From IMG/VR virus record IMGVR_UViG_3300049003_000001, positions 13,660-77,659 of that record: 64,000 nucleotides of DNA. One strand, 5' to 3'. This DNA comes from a virus (Duplodnaviria > Heunggongvirae > Uroviricota > Caudoviricetes). The position numbers and the translations under genes were made by a program. Below the pieces are notes generated by a model. It did not search any database. It had not been told where the DNA came from and was given only the letters and a program-made list of their open reading frames with translations. Shown here piece by piece: positions 9,233-59,610 of the stretch. Position 1 is the stretch's first letter. Every line of letters begins with the position of its first letter.

Positions 9233-12200
9233 AGCCTGCGACAACAGCAGCAAAGAACACTATTCAGCGTGAGCACGCGGTTGCCGTCCAGCCGCGTCTC
9301 ACTGCTGAGTGGGAATACAACCGTTTCCGTGTACCGCAGGTCACGGTATTTCCGGCGCAGTTTGATCCCGACTGGATTGCAGCATTCGGTGACGTGCAGA
9401 GCGTTGCACAGCCGAATCGTCCGCGTACCGGAATTGCGAAGATTCGCCTTGACGCCGGGGTCAAGCCGCTGGGAGCCTCGCGTGACACTCCGCAGGCATC
9501 TCGCTTTTACCCGGCAGGCCCGACAGACCCGTACAAGTATTTCGGATCAGAGCAGGTTACCAAGCTTGTCCAGAATGCAGACGGCTCGTACGATTTCGAT
9601 GCCCCGATTCAGATTGCCGTCGTTTACGACGAGCCGGTAGTAACCAACAAGATCGTTTTGGGATTTGAGACCAGCTACGCCAAGCCGGTCGATTACACCG
9701 TTGAGTACACGCTTGACGGTAATTCGTGGTTCCCGGCGGCTACCAACGTGGCTCTGGAATCCGATGGCACCGCCACCCTCTACCGTGGACGCACCGGGTG
9801 GGATATTGCCCGTAACCTTGACTACCCGGCGGTAATTCAGGGTGTCAGGCTCAATGTATATTCCATGAACCAGCCGTACGCCCACGTGGACGTATTGCAG
9901 GTAGGCGCACGCCTAGAGAATGACCTAACACCTTACCTAATCTCCTACAGCGTGCAGATGGAGGTCGCGGACCGCTCGTTCCTTGCGCCTCTCGGCAAGG
10001 CTAGCGCGAACAAGGCCAAGGTCAAGCTGAGCAACATCGACGGTCGTTTCAATAACCACAATACTGCATCGCTATACAAGGGGATGATCGACAAGAAGAT
10101 CAAGTTTACGCTTGACCTGGGAATCGACGCGACTCCACAGAGCGGTTCGAAGTACGAATACGTTCGTGAATTCACCATGTGGACCGACACGTGGGGTGTT
10201 GAGGGTCAGACGACGGTTGACGTTGACCTACAGGACTCATCTATTTTCTTGCAGGAAGAGAACATGCCGGTCGTGTTTTATGAAAACACGGCGGCGGGTG
10301 CGGTGGTGTGGCAGATCATGGATTACCTAGGCCACACAAATTACGCATACTCCCGAGCAGCGCAGGACTACGGACAGATCATCCCGTTCTACTGGCCGGA
10401 AAAGGACAACACCGTTTGGAAGGAATTCGCTAGCATTGCGGAGGCCACTCAGACGGCCATCTTCTACGACGAGAACGACGTATTGCAGATTCGTGCTCGC
10501 GCTGCCATGTACTCCGACAAGGCGGTTGACTGGAACTTTGACGCGGTAAGCAACGGGCAGAAGCTTCCGGACGTTATTGACATGGAAATCGGGTACGACT
10601 TGGAGTCGAATTCGGTTGACGTGAAGTACCAGCCTGCCCATTACTCAGATTCCAGCAACGGTATTCCCAAGATGGAGACCGTATGGGACGCCGAGGAAGA
10701 GACCATCCTTCTCCGCGCCTCAACGATGAGCCAGAACCTACTAATCGGCGGGACCGACTTGTGGGTTGCTCAGGCGACCGCTAATTTCTGGCCGTACCAC
10801 TCTGATATCAATATCGAGGGTGAAATCCTGGCCTACATCGGAAAGGAATACGCCTACTACACGTTGCAGACCGGCAACTACATCATTGTCGGCGGGGACA
10901 TGGTTGTGCCAGGTCCGGATACCCACGTGCTCAACAAGAAGGTAATTTACTCCCTTGAAGAGCAGCAGCAGTTGGACAAGCTGGACGAATTCTACTCGTG
11001 GAAGAATTCCTACACAGGCCGCTTGGTCGTTACCGAGCGCGGAAAGTATGGGTCGTTGGAGGACAATCACTATTCACAGGTGACCTCTTACATGAGCTAC
11101 GTGGCTAACGGTGACCACCCAACGTATTACTACGATTGGAGCGCCGGGGGACAGTCTCAGCAGGACGGTTTCGTTCGCCTGACCAACAATTCAACCGCCG
11201 CGAATACGTACCACGTGCTAAAGCATCCGATGAAGCTCGACCTGTCCGCTAAGACGGCGTACTTCGGCACCCGTATGCGTTTCTCTAATGAGAGCGCTTG
11301 CTGGATTGCCGGATTGCACATCGCCGGTGACGACGGGCGCGGTGGATACAACTTCGAATTCTCTCCGACCACCACCGTTGAGGCCGAGAGCCGCACCCAC
11401 CACAATGAGGTCTCGCTTTCTCAGATGCCTACTGGTGGAACCTACAGTTGGGTTCCGGAATTCGACGCGACCGATGGCGTGGGATACCAGTTCGGAATGC
11501 TGACGCAGGAGTGGTACGACATTGACGCCAAGTGGGAGAAGTTGAGCAACGGCGACGTTAACATTAGCCTTTTCGTCAACAGCGTCTACACCGGCCGCTG
11601 GCTAATTCCGGCCGCTCAGGTGCTACCGACCACCGGGCGCTTCGGCATCTTTGTCCGTGGTACCGCTGAGGCCGATTTCGAATACCTCTACGGAGTGGTG
11701 GACGACGAGGCCAACCCGTTCCTTGACCCGGACGCAACCGGATTCCTTGACCTAGAGCGCGGGGGATACATGAGTGGTTTCGTGCAGAAGAACATTCGCT
11801 ACAACTTCGGAACCGTTACCCCGGCTTACCAGTGGGCAGCGGGTGGCACGTACTACCCTCAGCGCGTCCAGAACAATCGATTCGCATTCGATGAGTTCGG
11901 GCCGGTTGTTCACGAGGTCAGGAAGTTTGATGTTAAGTTCAAGGAAGAGAACGTCCCGGTGGCGCACTCCAATTTGTACTTCAACAACCCGGAGCAGATC
12001 GATGTGACCTACTACGAGTCTGACGCATTCGGTGCGAGCTTCCTTCTAGCTAATGCTGCCCGCCACGACGCCTTCGCCAAGGGAGATGACGGCATCACCT
12101 TCGGCAAGGATAATATCAAGACCCGCACGATGTTCATTTACGGCAGGTCGGTATATCAGGACGAAGAGCGCACGAAGACCACGGACGATGCGTCATCAAT

Positions 12201-13186: not shown

Positions 13187-15651
13187 GGGTACTTCTACGC
13201 GACCTGTCGCCGGGACAGGCATACGCCATTCAGTTCCGCTCCAACGACGGCGACGGAAACGTTTCCGAGTGGAGTCAGGTTCAGCGATTCAATACGACCA
13301 ACGACACGATTCGTCCGGGTAACGTGGTCAACCTTTCATGGTATGACTCTGGCTCAGCATTCATCGGGCAGTGGGACAAGGTTGTCCTTGACGAGCAGGG
13401 AAACCCGCTCCGTGACTTCCGCGCATATCGTTGCAACGTCTCTTCCGGCGGCGGGGCGGGTGCCGACTTTTACGTCATCGGAGAGCGTTTCGAATTCACT
13501 AAGGCTCAGAACCTAGCCACATTCGGCACGGTTCAGACTTCGCTCACCCTAAAAGTATGGGCCGTTGACCTTACTTTCAACGAGTCAAATATCCCGGCTC
13601 AGGTCACGGTCAACCCATTGCAGCCACCGACTCCGAGCACGCCGACGATTAGCAGTTTCCTCGGCAGTGTCATGGTCACCTGGGACGGGCTCAATTCCGG
13701 CGGTACCGGCATGGGTTCAAACTTTAGCTATTGCGAGGTTCATGCCTCTACCGTTAGCCAGTTCACACCGACAGCTAACACGTTGGTCGGTCGCATGGTT
13801 GCCGATGGCAGCGGGTCTAAGTATGTGATTCAGGGATTGCCTTATGGCTCTCTTTACTACATTCGTTTGATTGCGGTCAATGAAATCGGCAAGAGGTCTC
13901 AGCCGTCCGCGCAGGCATCGGGTACGGCCACCCGCGTGAGCGGTCTCGATATCGCCAACGGCTCTCTGACCAAGGACCAGATTAACTTTACGGCTCTGGA
14001 TATCGGAGGTGCCAACGCTTTTTACCAGACCTCACAGCCGACCTCAGGCATGGTAACGGGCGACCTGTGGTACGACACCGACGACCAGTACGAGGTATAC
14101 CGATACAACGGAACCACGTGGGTGCTCGCGCCGGAAGTTGGATTGGTTTACAGCAAGAAGATTGTTGTCGGTGCCCTGACGGGTGACAAGATTGCGACCA
14201 ACTTCTTCGCTGCCGCTCTCGCGCGTATTGGTACGGCCTACATCGATGAGGCGTATATTCAGTCGGTTAATGCGGCATCGATTCGCACCGGCTCGATTTC
14301 TGCCGACCAGCGCATCATCGCGGGTCCGGAGCTAGAGAACCACGCGGAAATGACCAGCACTGGTTTCTACGTCAAGGGTCCACAGCCGGGAACGCCGGTA
14401 GGCCAGACACCGAATATCATTGACCGTATCCGCATGGGTACCGGAGTCAGTGACTTCTTCGCTATCCCGGACCCGGTTGACCCGGATTCCACCCTCGCTC
14501 AGATTGACGAGAACGGTAACGCTTCTTTCCAGGGATTGTACGTAGACACTGACCCGACTATTCAGGGAACCAAGCTCTCTACCATGATCGGTAAGAAGGC
14601 TAACATCGTAGGATACTCGTACCTTGGTCCGATTACCGACCTTGAACCGGCGGGGTCGGCTGGTATTCGTAGCGAATACGGAATCGGTCAGTTCAACTTC
14701 CCGGTTGTTGCCGGTCGATTCTACGAAATCAATGCAAGACTTGGTTTCTGGTATGTGACTAACGGCGGGGAGGCTTGGCACTACCTGCGCGTTCAGCAGG
14801 ACAACCGAACGGATACCGATATCGCTAATGGTATTGCTCCGACTCCGGTAACGAGCAGCAGCACGGCAATCTTCTCCGTTCCGGTCAACGGTCTTCTCAA
14901 CAATGCCTGGCAGTCATCGAATCATAAGACTACTTGGAAGGCTACCTTCACCGGACGAGCGAGTGTCGGATATTCCCTACACATGCCATACCCACCAGCG
15001 TCGGACTCTGTAATCAAGGTACCCAACCCTAGCTACCTGACGCTGAGCGCAGTCGATATGGGAGATACCCCGGCCGATTACAACAACGGTCGTAGGCACA
15101 ACCAGGGCGGCGCGCTGTATTCGTACACACCACCACCGCCACCGGCCGTCCAGCCGCAGAACTTCTATTGGGAGGGCCGATACAATTGGGCTCGTTCGTG
15201 GAAGGGAAATGGCGCATGGATGACCAACGATGGCGGAAAGGTATACCAGGGAACCGACCCGTCCGGCTACAACGGAAACCAGTACGGCGCATTCGGATTC
15301 AGCAATGCCGATTTTGCGTCGATGCTCTCCGGTGCCTACAACATCAGCGTTCACGTATACCTGTACTTCGCGCACTGGTATTACAACGCGGGTGGTACGG
15401 CTCGTGTTGGATACACAAGTCAGTGGGGAGACCCGGCGGGTGGAGGTCTCGGTGGTGGAATTGCCGGAACGTTCGATTCTTCCGGATGGCCGAAGCCGGG
15501 TGCTCGTGAGCTAGATATTTCCGGATGGGCCGGGGCATTCCAGAACGGCTCTGCCCGAGGAATCGTGCTTGGTCCGGGTAACAACGGATACCAGAATTAC
15601 GGTTACGCTACAGACTGTGTTCTAAAGTTTTGGTACACTAAGAACGTATAA
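13183..15651 (+). CDS. minor tail protein with fibronectin type III-like domain and Gly-rich C-terminus (fibre/receptor-binding-like)
   Basis: The N-terminal segment LSPGQAYAIQFRSNDGDGNVSEWS is FN3-like. The C-terminus is Gly/Tyr/Asn-rich and ends GGGLGGGIAG. 822 aa. Confidence 0.5.
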   Translation: MRVLLRDLSPGQAYAIQFRSNDGDGNVSEWSQVQRFNTTNDTIRPGNVVNLSWYDSGSAFIGQWDKVVLDEQGNPLRDFRAYRCNVSSGGGAGADFYVIGERFEFTKAQNLATFGTVQTSLTLKVWAVDLTFNESNIPAQVTVNPLQPPTPSTPTISSFLGSVMVTWDGLNSGGTGMGSNFSYCEVHASTVSQFTPTANTLVGRMVADGSGSKYVIQGLPYGSLYYIRLIAVNEIGKRSQPSAQASGTATRVSGLDIANGSLTKDQINFTALDIGGANAFYQTSQPTSGMVTGDLWYDTDDQYEVYRYNGTTWVLAPEVGLVYSKKIVVGALTGDKIATNFFAAALARIGTAYIDEAYIQSVNAASIRTGSISADQRIIAGPELENHAEMTSTGFYVKGPQPGTPVGQTPNIIDRIRMGTGVSDFFAIPDPVDPDSTLAQIDENGNASFQGLYVDTDPTIQGTKLSTMIGKKANIVGYSYLGPITDLEPAGSAGIRSEYGIGQFNFPVVAGRFYEINARLGFWYVTNGGEAWHYLRVQQDNRTDTDIANGIAPTPVTSSSTAIFSVPVNGLLNNAWQSSNHKTTWKATFTGRASVGYSLHMPYPPASDSVIKVPNPSYLTLSAVDMGDTPADYNNGRRHNQGGALYSYTPPPPPAVQPQNFYWEGRYNWARSWKGNGAWMTNDGGKVYQGTDPSGYNGNQYGAFGFSNADFASMLSGAYNISVHVYLYFAHWYYNAGGTARVGYTSQWGDPAGGGLGGGIAGTFDSSGWPKPGARELDISGWAGAFQNGSARGIVLGPGNNGYQNYGYATDCVLKFWYTKNV

Positions 15652-27473: not shown

Positions 27474-28088
27474 GTGCGAACCACGGGAGAGGCTGATAAG
27501 GTCTCTCCCGTGGCGACCAAGACTGAGTTCCGGTGTGATGAACGGTGTGGTGACAACGGTGGATACAACCGTCACCAGAGGGCAGGAGTGCCCGCGTGCG
27601 CTGACGCCAGGGCGGCGCACGCCCGGCAGATGGATGACTACCGCAGGCGTCGGTATCTCAACGCCGACCGGGGCATGAGTGTCGATATCACGGCCTCACG
27701 CCGCCGGTTGCAGGCGTTGGCTTATCTCGGGTATACGTCCCGCCAGATAGCGCAAATGTGCGGCAAGGACTACCTCAACATTGGTCATTTCTGCGACAGG
27801 CAGAAGACGGTTTGGAAAGACACCGCCGAGGCGCTTGAAAAGGCGTACGAGAAGTACAGCATGATTACCCCGGAACACAACCGGGCGACGACCTTCGCCA
27901 AGAACTACGCTCGCAGGCGCGGGTATGTGGGTCCGCTGGCGTGGGATGACGAAACGATTGACGACCCTCGCGCGCTGCCGCAGGGAGTCCGCCGGGACGA
28001 ATTCCAGAAGTGGCTGAACAACCAGGCCACGGACCTGCAAAAGCAGATATGGCAGGAACAGCAGCAGGCCGAGAAGCTGTCGGCATGA
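27474..28088 (+). CDS. hypothetical protein (Arg-rich, possible DNA-binding)
   Basis: 204-aa ORF followed by an overlapping pair of hairpins. Confidence 0.35.
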   Translation: MRTTGEADKVSPVATKTEFRCDERCGDNGGYNRHQRAGVPACADARAAHARQMDDYRRRRYLNADRGMSVDITASRRRLQALAYLGYTSRQIAQMCGKDYLNIGHFCDRQKTVWKDTAEALEKAYEKYSMITPEHNRATTFAKNYARRRGYVGPLAWDDETIDDPRALPQGVRRDEFQKWLNNQATDLQKQIWQEQQQAEKLSA

Positions 28089-28166: not shown

Positions 28167-29186
28167 ATGACAATCAATAAGATCGATGAGCTACTTGCTC
28201 ACTTGCCGAAGGGCGTACGAAACGGAATTATCAAGGCCAGCGAGAGCGAGCGCGTGCTGTATCCGCTGGCGAGCCGGGGGCTCACGAGGGCTCTAGGCGG
28301 CGGTATTGGCAAGGGTCGCATGACCCTGCTGTACGGAAACACCTCATCCGGAAAGTCTCTGCTGATGTTGCAGAGTATCGGTGAGTGGCAGAAGAAGGGC
28401 ATGACCTGCGCCTACGTGGACGCAGAGGGCACGTTCAGCGAGGAATTCGCTCAGCGTCTAGGCGTGGACACCGAGAACCTTATTCTGATTCAGAAGAAGT
28501 CGTTCGGCGCGGTGACCGATGCGGTGGTGCCTTTGCTATCTGCCGGCCTTGACATTCTTGTTATTGACTCCATCTCGCTCATGCTTCCCGAGGTATTCGT
28601 GGATAGCGACGGCGGGGTTGCGGAATTCGATAAGATGAAGCAGATTGGAGCGCACGCGAAGAGTACGAGCATTATGATTAACGCTCTGCACTACTCCAAC
28701 GTGAAGACCTCCATCGTCGTCATTTCTCAGACGACTACCAAGATTGAGAACACATACACGAAACAGGTTCCGCACGGTGGCGTCAAGCTGCCATTCGCCT
28801 GTACTCAGATCATCAAGCTCACGTCGTCTGCGACGGACGCTAATCAGATCAAGGGCCAGACATTCATCGGGAACAAGATTGTCGAACTGCCAATTGGCCG
28901 TCCGGTCGATGCCGTGGTGGAGAAGAACAAGCTAGGCCCGCAGTCACGCACGGCGAGCTACAACCTGTATTACGACGGTCCGTCTCTCGGCGTGGACCGC
29001 TACGACGAGCTTGTGACGCTCGCTGTGGCGACCGGCGCTGTCGATAAGGCCGGGGCATGGTTCCGCTTCGACGGGCAGCAGTGGCAGGGCTCCAAGGCGC
29101 TCGTAAAGGCCGTCAAGGAAGACCAGGCCCTAGAGGATGCCATCGAGGCTGAGCTTGCTCTGGCGCTTAATGGCGGGGAGTTGTGA
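28167..29186 (+). CDS. recA: RecA-like recombinase
   Basis: Walker A YGNTSSGKS. RecA-fold length of 339 aa. An acidic/Ala-rich C-terminus. Confidence 0.8.
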   Translation: MTINKIDELLAHLPKGVRNGIIKASESERVLYPLASRGLTRALGGGIGKGRMTLLYGNTSSGKSLLMLQSIGEWQKKGMTCAYVDAEGTFSEEFAQRLGVDTENLILIQKKSFGAVTDAVVPLLSAGLDILVIDSISLMLPEVFVDSDGGVAEFDKMKQIGAHAKSTSIMINALHYSNVKTSIVVISQTTTKIENTYTKQVPHGGVKLPFACTQIIKLTSSATDANQIKGQTFIGNKIVELPIGRPVDAVVEKNKLGPQSRTASYNLYYDGPSLGVDRYDELVTLAVATGAVDKAGAWFRFDGQQWQGSKALVKAVKEDQALEDAIEAELALALNGGEL

Positions 29187-29389
29187 GCGGGAAGCTAGAG
29201 GAATTTCTGGCGAAGGCTGAGGCCCCCACACAGGCCAAGCCGGGGGGCGTCGAGTGGTTCGCCTCCGTGCAGTGTCAGACCTGCCAGGAAGACGTATTCG
29301 AACAGACGCTCTATCCGACTGACGCCATTCTCGTATGGGAATGTAGCGGCGGACACAAGAGCATGATTGAGAATTACCGCGCATTCTAA
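29183..29389 (+). CDS. small zinc-ribbon protein
   Basis: CQTCQ...CSGGH. 68 aa. Confidence 0.35.
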   Translation: MSGKLEEFLAKAEAPTQAKPGGVEWFASVQCQTCQEDVFEQTLYPTDAILVWECSGGHKSMIENYRAF

Positions 29390-29398
29390 GATGCGAAG
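29388..29398. repeat. direct repeat AAGATGCGAAG (left copy) flanking the reverse-gene cassette
   Basis: An identical 11-mer occurs at 30742-30752. The left copy overlaps the TAA stop of the upstream gene. Confidence 0.7.
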
Positions 29399-29400
29399 AA

Positions 29401-29449
29401 CCAAGATGGCAAGGTGAGTCGCACGCAGCTTCTCACCTTGCCATCTTGG
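29401..29449. terminator. perfect 18-bp inverted repeat hairpin (bidirectional terminator between convergent genes)
   Basis: CCAAGATGGCAAGGTGAG-(13 nt loop)-CTCACCTTGCCATCTTGG. It lies 9 nt past the stop of the minus-strand gene. Confidence 0.7.
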
Positions 29450-29458
29450 CATCTTGCC

Positions 29459-30673
29459 TCAGGTGTTCTTGCCACCCTTGATGACCGTCAGGTTGGACGG
29501 CTTTGCAGTGGTGCGGGTCTTGCGAGGACGGGGCTTCTTTCCGTCCAATTCCGCCTCCATCTGCCGCATTTCCTCTTCCTGCTGGTGCTTGGCAACCAGA
29601 GCCGCCGCCTCGCTGGCCGACAGATTCCGGATATCCGATTCCGGCATGCACCAGAACCAGAAGGCCCCGAGCTTGCGCGACCGGACGTTGAGCTTGCCCT
29701 TGGCCGTGCGGACCTGCGAGGTCGTGAATCCGGCTTCCTTGGCAAGCTGGAAAATGATGACCGGAGACTTGACGCCACCTTCCTCCATGAGCGTGTCGCG
29801 GAGGAATTCGACTGCCTCTTCCCGCTCGTTGCGCTGAGCGGAATCCACCTTGCGGTTCCGCATGAGGTCGTCCGCGTCGATGTTCTCGACCGGCTTGGAT
29901 TCCCACACGAGCTTCGGCTTGCCGCGCACCGTGTGAATTTCGTAGGCGAGCGACGCGGGCTCAGAGGTCACGTTCATCTTCGTGCAGGCGATGATGCGAC
30001 GCTTCGGCTTGTCCGGGTCCGGGCCGACGAGATATCCGAAACGGCACTGGCCGATAAGACCCATCGAACCGCCACCGGCCTGCTTGGCGTTCTTGCCGCC
30101 GCCCTTGGTCAAGTGGCGAACCATGATGACCGTGACGCCGGTTTCCTTCGCCATGTCCGCGAGAGGCGCGACCGCCTTGCGAATCTGCTGGTCGCTCCCG
30201 GAGTGGACTCCGAGGAAAACCATGATCGGGTCGATGATGACCAGACGAATGTTGTTTTCCCGGATGATATCCCGTATAGTGGGGATATCGCGGGGAAGTG
30301 AAGGCGTCTCCCCGCCGACGTTGCTCAACTGGATGATCTTGGAGAGGTCACCACCGGCAGCGTCACAGCGAGCGGCGATTTCCTCCGGGGAGTCCTCCGA
30401 GGCGATGAAGAGCACGCCCTGAGCGCCACCGTGAACGACGGAGTTGTCGGGCCACTTGCCGCCCTTGGAAACCCGAGCGGCGAAATCGGTGGTAACCATC
30501 GACTTCCCGAGACCGGGGTCGCCGTCCAGCACGCCGATGCCGCCGGGAACGAGGTGTCCGTCCCACAACCACGGGGTGCGGTTCTTGGTCCCGCCGACGC
30601 GCCGACGCGCAATTGCGTCGAGCCGGGTCACGGTATATCCCGCAGTGCGCGGGGACCGAGTACGAGTAGCCAC
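29459..30673 (-). CDS. AAA/RecA-superfamily ATPase (RepA/DnaB-C-terminal-like, AAA_25 type) with C-terminal HTH-like tail
   Basis: Walker A GDPGLGKS. Walker B-like LVIIDPIM. GTG start with a GGAGG RBS. It is the only minus-strand gene. The local GC content is visibly higher, with spurious ORFs in all six frames. Confidence 0.65.
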   Translation of the reverse strand: MATRTRSPRTAGYTVTRLDAIARRRVGGTKNRTPWLWDGHLVPGGIGVLDGDPGLGKSMVTTDFAARVSKGGKWPDNSVVHGGAQGVLFIASEDSPEEIAARCDAAGGDLSKIIQLSNVGGETPSLPRDIPTIRDIIRENNIRLVIIDPIMVFLGVHSGSDQQIRKAVAPLADMAKETGVTVIMVRHLTKGGGKNAKQAGGGSMGLIGQCRFGYLVGPDPDKPKRRIIACTKMNVTSEPASLAYEIHTVRGKPKLVWESKPVENIDADDLMRNRKVDSAQRNEREEAVEFLRDTLMEEGGVKSPVIIFQLAKEAGFTTSQVRTAKGKLNVRSRKLGAFWFWCMPESDIRNLSASEAAALVAKHQQEEEMRQMEAELDGKKPRPRKTRTTAKPSNLTVIKGGKNT

Positions 30674-30741
30674 TTGTCCTCCCTTCCTTGTCTGGTGTTG
30701 GGAGGGACGTTACACCCCTCAGACGAACATGTCAAGAGGTC

Positions 30742-30752
30742 AAGATGCGAAG
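30742..30752. repeat. direct repeat AAGATGCGAAG (right copy)
   Basis: Identical to 29388-29398. It is followed at 30764-30777 by CTCATCTTGCCATC, which matches the hairpin arm CTCACCTTGCCATC at 29432-29445. Confidence 0.7.
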
Positions 30753-30823
30753 TTGTACGGGACTCATCTTGCCATCATCCTCACGCTTAGTAGCGCTTAG
30801 ATATACAGGGAGTTAATAGGAAT

Positions 30824-31159
30824 ATGGCACGCAAGCATGGCACGGCTAAGTCCGAGGCCGCAGAGATTAAGCGCATGGGCGCGAAGGCTCAGGCAAATTC
30901 CGGCCGGGGGAAGGTCAAGAAGGGCGACGCCGTAATCGACGGCTACTGGCTCTGCGACGTGAAGGAATATCCGAAGGGATACACCGTCAGCCTAGAGACG
31001 TGGGCCAAGATTTGCACGGACGCCATGAAATCTGGTAATCTAGAGCCTACGCTGAACATCGTGTTGGGCGAGGCAGGCGGGCCGAGAGTCCGTCTTTTTG
31101 TTTTGTCCGAAGATGAATTTAATGAATACCGAGCCTTGCGCTCAGCAGCATATGAATGA
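30824..31159 (+). CDS. small PD-(D/E)XK-family nuclease (VRR-NUC/Hjc-like)
   Basis: GDAVIDGYWLCDVKEY carries the D...D-x-K catalytic motif. 111 aa. Confidence 0.4.
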   Translation: MARKHGTAKSEAAEIKRMGAKAQANSGRGKVKKGDAVIDGYWLCDVKEYPKGYTVSLETWAKICTDAMKSGNLEPTLNIVLGEAGGPRVRLFVLSEDEFNEYRALRSAAYE

Positions 31160-40647: not shown

Positions 40648-40675
40648 GTCTTAGTCGCTCTGCTACTATCAACTC

Positions 40676-40936
40676 ATGCCGACAGATCATTGGGTGTTAG
40701 TAGCAGAGCGACGGGGCATCACTCCCCGGAAGCGCAAGCGCGAGGTCATCTACGCGACCGACGACGAATCTCGTGCTCGGCGCGACGCCGAGGACATGGG
40801 CAAGACCAATCGTCGCATGAGGTTCTATGTAATGCCCTACTCAGGTGCGGTTGAAGTGGCTCGTAGAGAGTTGAACGAGCTTGAAGCCGCATTAGAGTCG
40901 GCTAAGATCATGAAGGCCAAGATGCGGGGTGACTAA
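40676..40936 (+). CDS. hypothetical protein
   Basis: 86-aa ORF. Confidence 0.3.
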   Translation: MPTDHWVLVAERRGITPRKRKREVIYATDDESRARRDAEDMGKTNRRMRFYVMPYSGAVEVARRELNELEAALESAKIMKAKMRGD

Positions 40937-41214: not shown

Positions 41215-41285
41215 GCGCCTGTAGCTTAGCGGCAAAGCAGCCCTCTCTAAAAGGGTGTACGCCGGTTCGAATCCGGTCAGGCGCA
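41215..41285 (+). tRNA. tRNA with anticodon CUA (amber-suppressor-like, Sup)
   Basis: Acceptor GCGCCTG/CAGGCGC. D GCTT/AAGC. Anticodon stem GCCCT/AGGGT with loop CT-CTA-AA (U33, A37). T-arm GCCGG-TTCGAAT-CCGGT. 4-nt variable loop. Confidence 0.7.
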
Positions 41286-41728
41286 CGTGATTCAAGATAT
41301 CGTCATCCGTGGCACGTCCCGGTACATCTCTTACCGCCGTGCAGACGGGAGTCCGGCTTATGCCACTCTTTACAACGCCGACCTCTCGTGCGACCATGAC
41401 GTGCGAGCTAAGGAATTGTGGGAGGGCGGCGGGGTCACTTGCCGCAAATGCGAGGGGTGGTTCTGCTACTGATGATCTGGTATGACGCAGTGACGTACGA
41501 GCCGGTAGCGCCGGGTGAGGGCGAGGACGGTGGTCGCCCTTCTATGGAGTATTACTACTGCCCTCGGTGCAAGGTAGCACGGACGATGGTCGAGAAGATG
41601 CGGGCCATGATCTGTGAGGTCTGCCGGACTGTATTGCTGGTCCGATGAAGCAGCCAGAGGCATTCATCCTGTTTGCGGCGTTTTTAGTCCTCGTGATGGT
41701 GATGCTACATGCGGCGTAAAAGAAAAAT

Positions 41729-52386: not shown

Positions 52387-52719
52387 GGGCCTGACTTGGT
52401 TTCGACTCTTAGTGGACATTGTTAGACGCAGCCGGTCTTGGGTAGAGACCTTAAACAACTCAAAATAATAAATGCAGACTACGACATTGTAGCTGAGGCA
52501 GAGGCCATCACCCGTGAGGCCGCTGCCGCCCTTGTTTCTGCCTGATCTAAACCCTCAGGATTGACAAGCAGGGAACAGTGGACGCCCTGATAACCAAACG
52601 TCCCTAGCAACACCCTAGCACTGCCGTGAGAAATGCAAGACCCGCCGGGGATACGGATGGCTGTAATTCGGATTTCAAGATAAGCTAGGAACACGCGGGT
52701 TCGACTCCCGCCAGGTCCA
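52387..52719 (+). ncRNA. ssrA: tmRNA (SsrA)
   Basis: The 5' end GGGCCTGACTTGGTTTCGAC and 3' end GCGGGTTCGACTCCCGCCAGGTCCA parallel the E. coli tmRNA termini. The acceptor GGGCCTG/CAGGTCC has the G3·U70 Ala identity pair. A candidate tag frame GCA GAC TAC ... GCC TGA reads ADYDIVAEAEAITREAAAALVSA*. Confidence 0.7.
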
Positions 52720-52750
52720 CGTGAGGATTATTGAAAAGGGAATCCTAGAG

Positions 52751-59304: not shown

Positions 59305-59610
59305 GCAAGGGTAAGACCGAAAAGCCCTGCCCCCGATGCGGAGAGGGAAAGATTCTCACCGGGGAGCGGTCGCAATACAACGGCAGAGATAAGTCCGGCA
59401 AGCAAGTCTGCGCCTCGTGCATCATGGAAGACTTGCTTGCCCCATTCGTTACGAGGATTTAATGGCAAAGCACTTTTACCAGATCGACATTATCGCCACG
59501 GAGATGCCGGACGAGGATGAACTGGAAAACCTGCAAGAAGAGCTAGAGGCCGTGTTCGGTCTCGGCACCCGAATTCGAATTGACTACGTAGATAGCGAAG
59601 GCTGAAAAAT

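Follow-up and report, generated by a model that had tools for sequence, protein, structure and literature searches.

A RepA-like ATPase gene flanked by short opposed repeats as a candidate initiator-helicase module in an uncultured phage clade related to Stanwilliamsviridae

The Rep helicases of SaPI satellites carry a C-terminal winged-helix (WH) domain that binds iterons located directly downstream of rep in opposite orientations (PMC9371898). These helicases are AAA+ proteins of the SF3 or MCM type with 3'-5' polarity, and their origins contain repeats of 5-8 bp, at least two on each side and pointing in opposite directions, around an AT-rich centre. The origin of the archaeal plasmid pRN1 is a stem-loop just downstream of the replication gene, and the upstream promoter region is also required for replication (PMC4234260). 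Its protein ORF904 unites a prim-pol with an SF3 helicase and winged-helix domains, and the essential stem-loop is about 100 nt long. In RSF1010, a separate protein recognises the origin, RepC, whose binding sites are 20-bp iterons (as cited in PMC8965321), and the helicase RepA (PDB 1g8y, 1nlf, 1olo) has no DNA-binding tail. Lactococcus phage F13 encodes in its early region gp46, a stand-alone AAA_25 protein demonstrated by experiment to be an ATP-dependent 5'-3' helicase (PMC8965321); this phage is small and virulent, and neither a fused winged helix nor cognate repeats have been reported for gp46.

We analysed a stretch of 64,000 nt (hereafter, the window) from IMG/VR record IMGVR_UViG_3300049003_000001 (Caudoviricetes; positions 13,660 to 77,659), the source phage of which belongs to an uncultured clade related to Stanwilliamsviridae. 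A replication set of DnaB, DnaG and DnaE is encoded by the phage itself, and the window carries 31 tRNAs and a tmRNA, all of them on the plus strand. On the minus strand, a gene at 29459..30673 encodes an AAA_25/RepA-like ATPase with RecA fold (404 aa), a putative hexameric helicase. The preliminary description had singled it out as the lone reverse-strand gene, and among the minus-strand ORFs tested it was indeed the only one with family support. It sits within a recombination cluster (RecA, Holliday-junction resolvase, Cas4 nuclease and RuvC), and a WhiB-like protein is encoded in its neighbourhood. The left edge of the module is marked by a conserved gene for a protein of 68 aa (29183..29389, plus strand; PHROG 10952, E = 2e-13), which lies directly downstream of RecA and converges on the ATPase gene; the right edge is the resolvase gene (30824..31159, plus strand; PHROG 2002, E = 5e-20). 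Both edges were placed by synteny with the phages Circinus and Annadreamy and with the clade relatives (designated below by locus numbers), all of which have a homologue of the 68-aa gene. Megablast of the 27-33 kb region against deposited phages gave no match. The cumulative GC skew had no inflection at the ATPase locus, where, since the genes are all on a single strand, it carries no information. A reading of the locus as a defence system was dropped, PADLOC having returned a single partial match (0.0058).

The protein, described earlier as an AAA/RepA-like ATPase with the Walker A motif GDPGLGKS, matches PF13481 (AAA_25) with 104.7 bits, where the cut-off is 27 (E = 6e-30, residues 26-192). 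The RecA core spans residues ~30-260 and is followed by a winged helix (278-342; nt 29648-29842) and by a long helix with a basic disordered tail (353-404). The residues K57, S58, E93, D148, H187, R211 and K232 are invariant in an alignment of 48 homologous sequences; Walker A, Walker B, the catalytic Glu, the sensor His and the trans-acting Arg/Lys are thus all intact, their roles being assigned by analogy with F13 gp46 and RepA (PMC8965321). The AF2 model (pLDDT 89) resembles RadA, RSF1010 RepA and DnaB, and Foldseek retrieved RepA structures 1nlf and 1olo at ~1e-11 with target-normalised TM of 0.67-0.70, along with DnaB (4esv) and RadA (8rxc). RSF1010 RepA, with which the conserved Walker A, Walker B, Glu, His and Arg/Lys are shared, is the closest solved replicative helicase both by profile (3e-8) and by fold (TM 0.69 over RepA). 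The segment K232-M-N234 stands where the KNRFG motif of RadA/Sms would lie. Foldseek matches of the winged helix were generic (E 0.05-0.4), Pfam found no match in the C-terminal 140 aa, and the C-terminal alignment had no significant match in a PDB profile search. Although RadA/Sms was the top match of the ATPase in sequence and structure alike, orthology with bacterial RadA/Sms was rejected: TIGR00416 gave 40.4 bits against a cut-off of 403 with the ATPase core alone matched, and the hallmarks of that family are absent, there being no zinc finger, no Lon domain and a winged helix at the C-terminus.

The best matches among deposited phages were primase/polymerase-helicases of Microbacterium and Mycobacterium phages, with 23-29% identity over ~75% of the ATPase. 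The likeness is with the helicase portions of these genes, which are annotated as DNA primase/helicase and the products of which carry a primase or prim-pol domain at the N-terminus and serve as the main replication proteins of their phages, whereas the present ATPase has the helicase and winged helix only and occurs alongside DnaB and DnaG. By description, it can also be set beside F13 gp46 as a stand-alone AAA_25/RepA-like phage protein. By analogy with its RecA-fold AAA_25/RepA-like type we predict 5'-3' movement, and it probably forms hexamers and acts as a helicase.

Past the stop codon of the ATPase gene lies a 3'-proximal array (29401..29457) of five NCAAGRTG octamers, which start at 29402 and 29410 on the plus strand and at 29434, 29442 and 29450 on the complement; in the orientation of the ATPase these are three tandem and two inverted units, the first of them 1 nt past the stop. 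The inner four build the 18-bp palindrome that had already been noticed, i.e. a perfect 18-nt inverted repeat whose arms, 29401-29418 and 29432-29449, enclose a 13-nt loop. It lies 9 nt from the stop codon of the minus-strand gene, and every other perfect inverted repeat in the 64 kb is shorter. Of 31 copies of CAAGRTG in the window, five fall within 55 bp past the ATPase stop and two in the promoter region, and tandem copies occur at the ATPase locus only; the unit is absent from other long inverted repeats (40654-40712, 59397-59441). The innermost opposed units are 17 nt apart at both the 3' and the 5' sites. The 3' central spacer (AGAAGCTGCGTGCGACT, 17 nt) has ~59% GC and the spacers of the two sites 53-59% GC, so that the window's array has no AT-rich centre between its opposed units. 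In relatives, the unit changes alongside the recognition helix, to CAAGGGAG in L015, CAAGAGTAG in L007 and CCCAAGATG in L006. Rfam gave only sub-threshold matches of the hairpin to eukaryotic miRNA precursors, which we take as chance likeness of shape. The sole call of the signal scanner, TTGCCA-18-TAGAAT on the minus strand, falls inside the palindrome and is left uninterpreted.

The 5'-proximal repeat site (30736..30777) consists of an inverted pair, CAAGATG at 30741-30747 and CATCTTG at 30765-30771. It is kept in L003 and L004 (identical TCAAGATGCGAAGTTG) and in L005 (as TCAAGATGAGAAG), and the promoter regions of L006 and L007 had no obvious repeat units. Adjacent to it is the predicted ATPase promoter (30707..30735, minus strand), with -35 TTGACA at 30730-30735, a 17-nt spacer and -10 TAACGT at 30707-30712; L003, L004, L005, L010 and L011 have TTGACA and either TAGCGT or TAGGTT at the same spacing. 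It escaped the generic promoter scanner owing to a -10 that agrees with TATAAT at just three of six positions. A ribosome-binding site, GGGAGG (30678..30683, minus strand), was read from the sequence 4 nt upstream of the start codon and has equivalents in L003 and L004 (GGAGG) and in L005 and L010 (GGAGA). The GTG start itself holds, as homologues share this start position, using ATG in L003 and GTG in L005. The inverted repeat reported around the ribosome-binding site does exist, but not at the claimed 8 bp: 6 bp are perfect (CCTCCC at 30678-30683, GGGAGG at 30700-30705), a search at minimum length 7 did not find it, and any longer pairing requires a 1-nt bulge. A hairpin sequestering the ribosome-binding site was therefore rejected as a conserved feature, the repeat not being kept in relatives. 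We propose the 5' site as an autoregulatory operator or a second binding site. Its TTGAC-bearing tandem copies overlap the -35, and part of the likeness between the two sites could reflect -35 hexamers, as the promoter copies contain TTGAC.

The 11-bp direct repeat AAGATGCGAAG, by which the gene had first been seen to be bracketed, is present at 29388-29398, where it overlaps the TAA stop of the 68-aa gene, and at 30742-30752, within the 5' site; these are its only exact copies in the window. Each copy is followed, as described earlier, by a related motif, CTCACCTTGCCATC at 29432-29445 and CTCATCTTGCCATC at 30764-30777, the latter again part of the 5' site. The sequence CTTGCCATC has four copies in the window against 0.54 expected, three of them at the ATPase locus. 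With one mismatch allowed, the 11-mer is not enriched window-wide: it was found three times against 1.34 expected, a count reached by 16 of 100 shuffles. The left copy is 82% identical to the adjoining AAGATGGCAAG at 29403 and is a degenerate outer copy of the octamer NCAAGRTG. It is missing from L003, L004 and L005, which nevertheless keep the ATPase gene. This speaks against att sites or a target-site duplication; most likely, the bracketing repeats are the ATPase's own short binding sites and not insertion scars.

Repeats of this kind are not peculiar to the clade. We surveyed 67 non-redundant IMG/VR loci with 24-45% identity to the ATPase, scoring the strongest direct-plus-inverted 8-mer array within +/-3 kb and defining the 3' zone as -250 to +200 of the stop codon. 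The strongest array fell in the 3' zone at 25 of 67 loci (4.9 expected, p = 3e-12), by a score that is crude, since in the window its top-scoring 140-bp stretch lies inside the gene and not on the palindrome. Both orientations were represented in 22 of these 25 arrays. Unit sequences differ between lineages, and the arrays accompany the gene into unrelated genomic contexts, changing with it. Several flank AT-rich spacers (AT-rich centres were seen in L049, L036 and L013), and those of L013 and L014 lie inside the coding 3' end.

With modest confidence, we lean towards a compact initiator-helicase module with cognate iterons that was captured from a mobile-element replicon and has since been retained. 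A RepA/DnaB-type ring-helicase ATPase would be fused to a C-terminal winged helix that probably binds DNA, and the NCAAGRTG units on both sides of the gene would be the binding sites of this domain. Two oppositely oriented protein assemblies would bind at the 3' array, which we propose as a candidate origin or cognate binding or loading site; most likely it would serve as a replication origin or for helicase loading and also end two converging transcripts. At the 5' site, the protein would repress its own promoter and possibly bridge both sites. The resemblance to SaPI Rep lies in a helicase ATPase fused to a C-terminal winged helix, in opposed short repeats of the same layout directly downstream of the ORF, and in the lack of a separate loader encoded nearby. 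The present ATPase differs in being a RecA-fold AAA_25 protein with predicted 5'-3' polarity; because it is not AAA+, the module would function like the SaPI Rep type without being homologous to it. Further differences from SaPI are the 17-nt spacer that is not AT-rich, the perfect hairpin formed by the units and the setting in a large phage that encodes DnaB, DnaG and DnaE itself, in place of a satellite. The combination of helicase and winged-helix domains with a stem-loop directly downstream recalls pRN1; unlike in RSF1010, the winged helix is fused to the helicase.

Some, though low, probability has to be given to the repeats being ordinary transcription signals, namely an actinobacterial-style bidirectional terminator without T-run and the -35 region of divergent promoters, with no dedicated binding protein. 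The palindrome separates the stop codons of two convergent genes, which is precisely the place that calls for a bidirectional terminator; its fold is very stable (-46.7 kcal/mol, z = -8.4), and the right tandem copies hold TTGACA and TTGACC, overlapping the conserved -35. It was seen in every clade relative examined, with 96.7% of cells paired and four of 18 pairs changed on both sides, a level that none of 500 shuffles reached; the double-sided changes are G:C, C:G and T:A at the variable eighth position of the octamer. A terminator would show perfect compensation too, and placement and compensation alike therefore count against the iteron reading. However, no T tract follows the stem and the terminator scan made no call. 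Terminators without a T tract have been reported in Actinobacteria. The palindrome of L015 is not merely a terminator, because a separate canonical one comes right after it, and that of L004 precedes two co-oriented genes. Nor would termination account for the same 7-mer and 17-nt spacing at both ends of the gene, for multiple tandem units in both orientations, for arrays in coding sequence or around AT-rich spacers, or for a 3'-end enrichment that, in the 67 loci, covers tandem as well as inverted units. A termination role fits the initiator-helicase reading as well, dual use being possible, and the palindrome very probably also acts as a bidirectional terminator.

Rather improbable, in our view, are octamers that serve as operators for another phage or host regulator, such as the WhiB-like neighbour or an HTH protein, and time the expression of an accessory recombination helicase (RadA/Sms-like branch migration) with no part in initiation. 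The position inside the recombination cluster, the RadA/Sms match and the phage's possession of DnaB would fit such a role. On the other hand, the ATPase has a winged helix of its own and, as shown above, not the RadA/Sms domains; the arrays move with the gene and change with it, and no tandem units occur elsewhere in the window.

In the Streptomyces BE-cluster phages Circinus and Annadreamy, downstream of RecA come the small gene, the resolvase gene and, further along, Cas4 and RuvC. An overlap of 4 bp joins the small gene to the resolvase gene in Circinus, with no ATPase between them, and no ATPase homologue was found in Streptomyces phage records. Because the gene is missing from BE-cluster phages, where the flanking genes overlap, we consider it acquired, and the earlier proposal of a laterally inserted cassette stands to that extent. 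The compositional shift stands too: the ATPase gene has 63.0% GC and 80% GC3, against 55.0 +/- 3.2% GC and 65.4 +/- 5.8% GC3 in the other 77 ORFs, and is the GC-richest 1215-bp stretch of the window. This excess is equally strong across the clade relatives with a readable locus (L003-L011, L015; 42-80% aa identity), in all of which the ATPase occupies the same junction with its orientation unchanged. Since the excess persists and site and orientation are fixed, the acquisition is old, and nothing points to mobility at present; an empty site was found in the distant BE-cluster phages and in none of the close relatives with a readable locus. The contig of L096 ends before the ATPase site can be judged; it has other reverse-strand cargo at the same locus, where L004 has extra small ORFs. 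The L007 values (Cas4 86%, RuvC 90%, ATPase 49%), with ATPase identity not ranking with backbone identity, hint at allele exchange. Single-protein IMG/VR scans with the ATPase and with RecA gave no close relatives, and when metagenomes were scanned with RecA, L096 and one unrelated RecA were the only matches. A cassette that is a recent insertion or still mobile, att-bounded or of homing type and delimited by the 11-bp repeat, could claim the gene's absence from BE-cluster phages, its elevated GC and solitary orientation, the variable cargo and the L007 allele, but is very improbable given that Pfam and PHROG profile searches found no integrase, transposase or homing nuclease at the locus, the left repeat is not conserved, the readable clade sites are all filled alike down to 42% identity, and a clade-wide GC excess is no mark of recent arrival. 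Distant homologues of the ATPase reside in integrase-bearing and small phage-like elements, and in one of each kind the ATPase relative is the only recognisable replication gene called nearby. It is therefore plausible that the gene was acquired 'as a unit' from a mobile-element replicon; in the initiator-helicase reading, an ancestor of the phage clade would have taken up the module and kept it.

It should be noted that the BE-cluster phages share the replication genes yet lack the ATPase gene, which counts against an initiator role; given this and the phage's DnaB, DnaG and DnaE, the ATPase may not be the main initiator. More tentatively, AAA_25 plus winged-helix proteins with 3'-adjacent opposed iterons might be a widespread class of self-loading initiator-helicases with RecA fold (SF4-like, 5'-3'), convergent with the AAA+ initiators of SaPI, pRN1 and P4 type, one member of which would have been domesticated by large tRNA-rich actinophage-like viruses and would define an origin at 29.4 kb despite a full DnaB/DnaG/DnaE set.

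We found no description of a replication origin for Stanwilliamsviridae in the literature; for the present clade, uncultured but related to that family, the locus provides a candidate origin or loading site together with a candidate initiator. An initiator architecture so far established experimentally for AAA+ proteins may, as the locus suggests, have arisen on a RecA-fold helicase too. The 3'-end arrays of the 67-locus survey offer a simple rule for predicting origins beside phage and integrative-element genes for AAA_25 helicases and primase-helicases. They also call for caution, as short direct repeats around an odd gene may be arrays of binding sites and not the scars of an insertion.

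When the flanks of the ATPase gene (29459-30673, minus strand; 404 aa) were lined up across all relatives, the true repeat unit was found to be an octamer, NCAAGRTG. The window has 31 copies of CAAGRTG, five of them within 55 bp at the 3' site (29401-29457) and two in the promoter region, and tandem copies are found only at this locus. Read in the orientation of the ATPase gene, the array after the stop codon runs GCAAGATG CCAAGATG GCAAGGTG, a 17-nt spacer, CACCTTGC CATCTTGG and then a degenerate copy, CATCTTAG. The 5' site (30736-30777) has the same geometry, with GCAAGATG, 17 nt and CATCTTGA. A reading of 29200-31000 bears out the coordinates of the preliminary description: its motif is present at both sites (CTCACCTTGCCATC, 29432-29445; CTCATCTTGCCATC, 30764-30777), and the 11-bp direct repeat, AAGATGCGAAG, has its sole exact copies in the window at 29388-29398 and 30742-30752; the left one is overlapped by the degenerate unit, and the right one is where, at the 5' site, the spacer meets its first reverse unit. 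The predicted ATPase promoter (30707-30735, minus strand) consists of a -35 TTGACA, a 17-nt spacer and a -10 TAACGT, is overlapped by further, TTGAC-containing copies, and has its hexamers and spacing kept in the relatives' loci L003, L004, L005, L010 and L011. The 8-bp inverted repeat proposed around the ribosome-binding site shrinks to 6 perfect bp (CCTCCC, 30678-30683; GGGAGG, 30700-30705) and is not kept in relatives. The only promoter-like call of a generic scanner in the region lies elsewhere (TTGCCA, 18 nt, TAGAAT; 10/12 matches; 29383-29412, minus strand); its -35 falls within the palindrome's left arm, its spacer contains the left 11-mer, and transcription from it would run antisense into the RecA and 68-aa genes.

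The 18-bp perfect palindrome of the preliminary description was verified; it is an 18-nt perfect inverted repeat, 29401-29418 and 29432-29449 (13-nt loop), which finishes 9 nt short of the stop codon of the minus-strand gene and is the longest of the whole 64 kb. Two other long perfect inverted repeats, at 40654-40712 (15 bp, 29-nt loop) and 59397-59441 (13 bp, GGCAAGCAAGTCT, 19-nt loop), do not contain the CAAGRTG unit. A stem of 13-20 bp is present in all relatives, with fold z-scores of -5.6 to -8.4, and 96.7% of cells are paired in an alignment of the palindrome from five relatives. Four of the 18 pairs are altered on both sides, with G:C, C:G and T:A at the variable eighth position of the unit, a covariation reached by 0 of 500 shuffles. 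Judged from this pattern, selection maintains the palindromic form itself, and the covariation fits a hairpin or cruciform function. The convergence of two transcription units makes a role in termination plausible, though the palindrome has no T tract and a signal scan called no terminator. However, in L015 a palindrome built from 2 x CAAGGGAG is followed by a separate classical terminator, and in L004 two co-oriented genes follow the palindrome, so termination alone would be insufficient. That the repeats are purely promoter and terminator elements seems to us improbable.

The ATPase ORF has a GC content of 63.0% (GC3 80%), compared with 55.0 +/- 3.2% (GC3 65.4 +/- 5.8%) for the other 77 ORFs, and is the GC-richest 1215-bp stretch of the window, equalled nowhere else in it. 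Its GC richness thus stands as first described, and it is the sole reverse-strand gene with family support: other long minus-strand ORFs tested gave no PHROG match, and 41215-62111 carries 31 tRNA genes plus a tmRNA (52387-52720), every one on the plus strand, as is the case in Streptomyces phages of the BE cluster. Among these tRNAs, one (41215-41286, anticodon CTA, labelled 'Pyl' by ARAGORN) is of the amber-suppressor type. With 27-33 kb as the query, deposited phages gave zero nucleotide matches; at the protein level the nearest cultured relatives are the BE-cluster phages (Stanwilliamsviridae, Loccivirinae; RecA 57%, Cas4-type nuclease 51%). The window, Circinus and Annadreamy share the order DnaB, DnaG, then DnaE, RecA, small gene (the 68-aa gene, 29183-29389), Holliday-junction resolvase (30824-31159 in the window) and, further on, Cas4 and RuvC. 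In Circinus the small gene overlaps the resolvase gene by 4 bp with no ATPase gene between them, and no Streptomyces phage record has a homologue, which argues that the ATPase gene was inserted at a gene junction of the family backbone. A second GC-rich deviation from BE-cluster gene order is a 204-aa gene (27474-28088, 61% GC) that matches phrog_1590 and, at its N-terminus, the WhiB-like phrog_12112; it separates the MazG-like gene from RecA, a position occupied in Circinus and Annadreamy by a small hypothetical gene alone.

Besides an identical protein (P0001, 77.7-kb JGI contig), the protein database contains graded relatives, with readable ATPase loci in L003, L004, L005, L006, L007-L009, L010, L011 and L015. 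Junction and inverted orientation are the same in every readable contig, at 42% to 80% identity, and the GC excess is equally strong (61-65%, vs 51-58% elsewhere in each locus), and is therefore a stable property rather than a signature of recent arrival. In L003 and L004 (JGI contigs Ga0642623_11030 and Ga0642624_28712) the genes for DnaE, RecA and the ATPase are each broken into several called ORFs, which suggests assembly frameshift errors or pseudogenes. Of the proposed mobile cassette, acquisition holds, given the Circinus junction, but by these comparisons the gene was acquired long ago and its repeats are not insertion scars. A weaker idea, that of a variable locus, stays alive because ranks by ATPase and by backbone identity disagree (L007: Cas4 86%, RuvC 90%, ATPase 49%; L003: Cas4 80%, ATPase 78%) and because other cargo is found here. 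L004 carries two extra 56-aa ORFs between palindrome and small gene (2150-2480), one a Phage_zn_bind_8 zinc finger, and the related locus L096 has another reverse-strand gene downstream of the 68-aa gene (1188-1880; 170 aa, no match in a Pfam search), followed by a canonical GC-stem/T-run terminator. The junction downstream of the 68-aa gene thus resembles a hotspot for genes in reverse orientation. An att site or target-site duplication fails as an explanation of the 11-mers, since the left copy is missing in L003, L004 and L005, where the right one is kept, and the interval has no recombinase or nuclease gene.

The protein matches Pfam AAA_25 (6e-30), its PHROG matches are helicase portions of primase-helicases, and its closest solved structures by sequence are RadA/Sms and RSF1010 RepA. 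An AF2 model (pLDDT 89) matches RadA, RepA (TM 0.69), DnaB and KaiC, and the catalytic residues are invariant across 48 homologues. Orthology with RadA/Sms was rejected, the RadA hallmarks being absent, and no defence-system signal was found for the ATPase. The recognition helix varies between groups of relatives whose repeat units vary too: TTSQVRTAKGKL occurs with CAAGRTG, TYTMLRTAKKKN with CAAGAGTAG, and SRDQIKRAKARV with CAAGGGAG. Residues 353-404 (29462-29617) add a helix at the C-terminus and a disordered tail rich in Lys and Arg, about 50 aa in all, present in the window allele and its closest relatives (proteins P0002-P0006) and absent from the 343-353-aa alleles of L006, L007, L010 and L011.

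Elsewhere, the gene for a distant homologue likewise has tandem-plus-inverted repeats, particular to the lineage, at its 3' end; examples are L013, an integrase-bearing element, and L014, a small phage-like element whose genes include those for a serine recombinase, a terminase and a portal. We surveyed 80 IMG/VR loci and gave each 140-bp window a score for 8-mers that recur in direct or inverted orientation. Of 67 non-redundant loci lying outside the clade of our phage, 25 had their top-scoring window within -250 to +200 of the stop codon of the ATPase homologue, vs 4.9 expected by uniform placement (binomial p = 3e-12), with both orientations in 22 of these; the stop-proximal window reached at least the locus's 95th percentile in 22 of the remaining 42. 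The score is crude, an internal stretch outranking the palindrome in our own 64-kb window owing to variation at the octamers' eighth base; despite this, the positional enrichment of repeat arrays at the 3' end is clear. The arrays inspected consist of two sets in opposed orientation, each of 2-4 units repeating every 8-11 bp; in several loci (L049, L036, L013, L027) they flank AT-rich spacers, and many of their units share an AGATG core with that of the window. In the stretch of L014 analysed, one and the same 290-aa capsid gene lies at either end (973-1845 and 11325-11332, about 10.3 kb apart), which suggests that the element measures about 10 kb, is in tandem or was assembled as a circle, and carries serine recombinase, AAA_25 protein, TerL, portal and capsid genes.

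The self-loading Rep helicases of SaPIs combine a helicase ATPase and a C-terminal winged helix with origins of short repeats right downstream of the ORF, at least two units per side in opposite orientation (PMC9371898); the module described here has the same components and arrangement, but its ATPase has a RecA fold instead of an AAA+ one, and its repeats lack the AT-rich centre. The pRN1 origin is a stem-loop just 3' of the replication gene (PMC4234260), as our palindrome is just 3' of a putative helicase gene, and a stand-alone AAA_25 phage protein is a demonstrated 5'-3' helicase (PMC8965321). By analogy, the module would work like the SaPI and pRN1 systems without being homologous to them, and on these precedents we read the interval as, most likely, an initiator-helicase with its cognate iterons. 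As caveats, the phage encodes its own DnaB, DnaG and DnaE, BE-cluster phages manage without the ATPase gene, and GC skew gives no signal at the locus. As an initiator-helicase module, it may have been captured by the clade ancestor from a mobile-element replicon, with the 3' palindrome as a candidate loading or origin-like site, probably a terminator too, and the 5' site as a candidate autoregulatory operator. The module provides a testable prediction of an origin and its initiator, and may point to a general rule for AAA_25 helicase genes.
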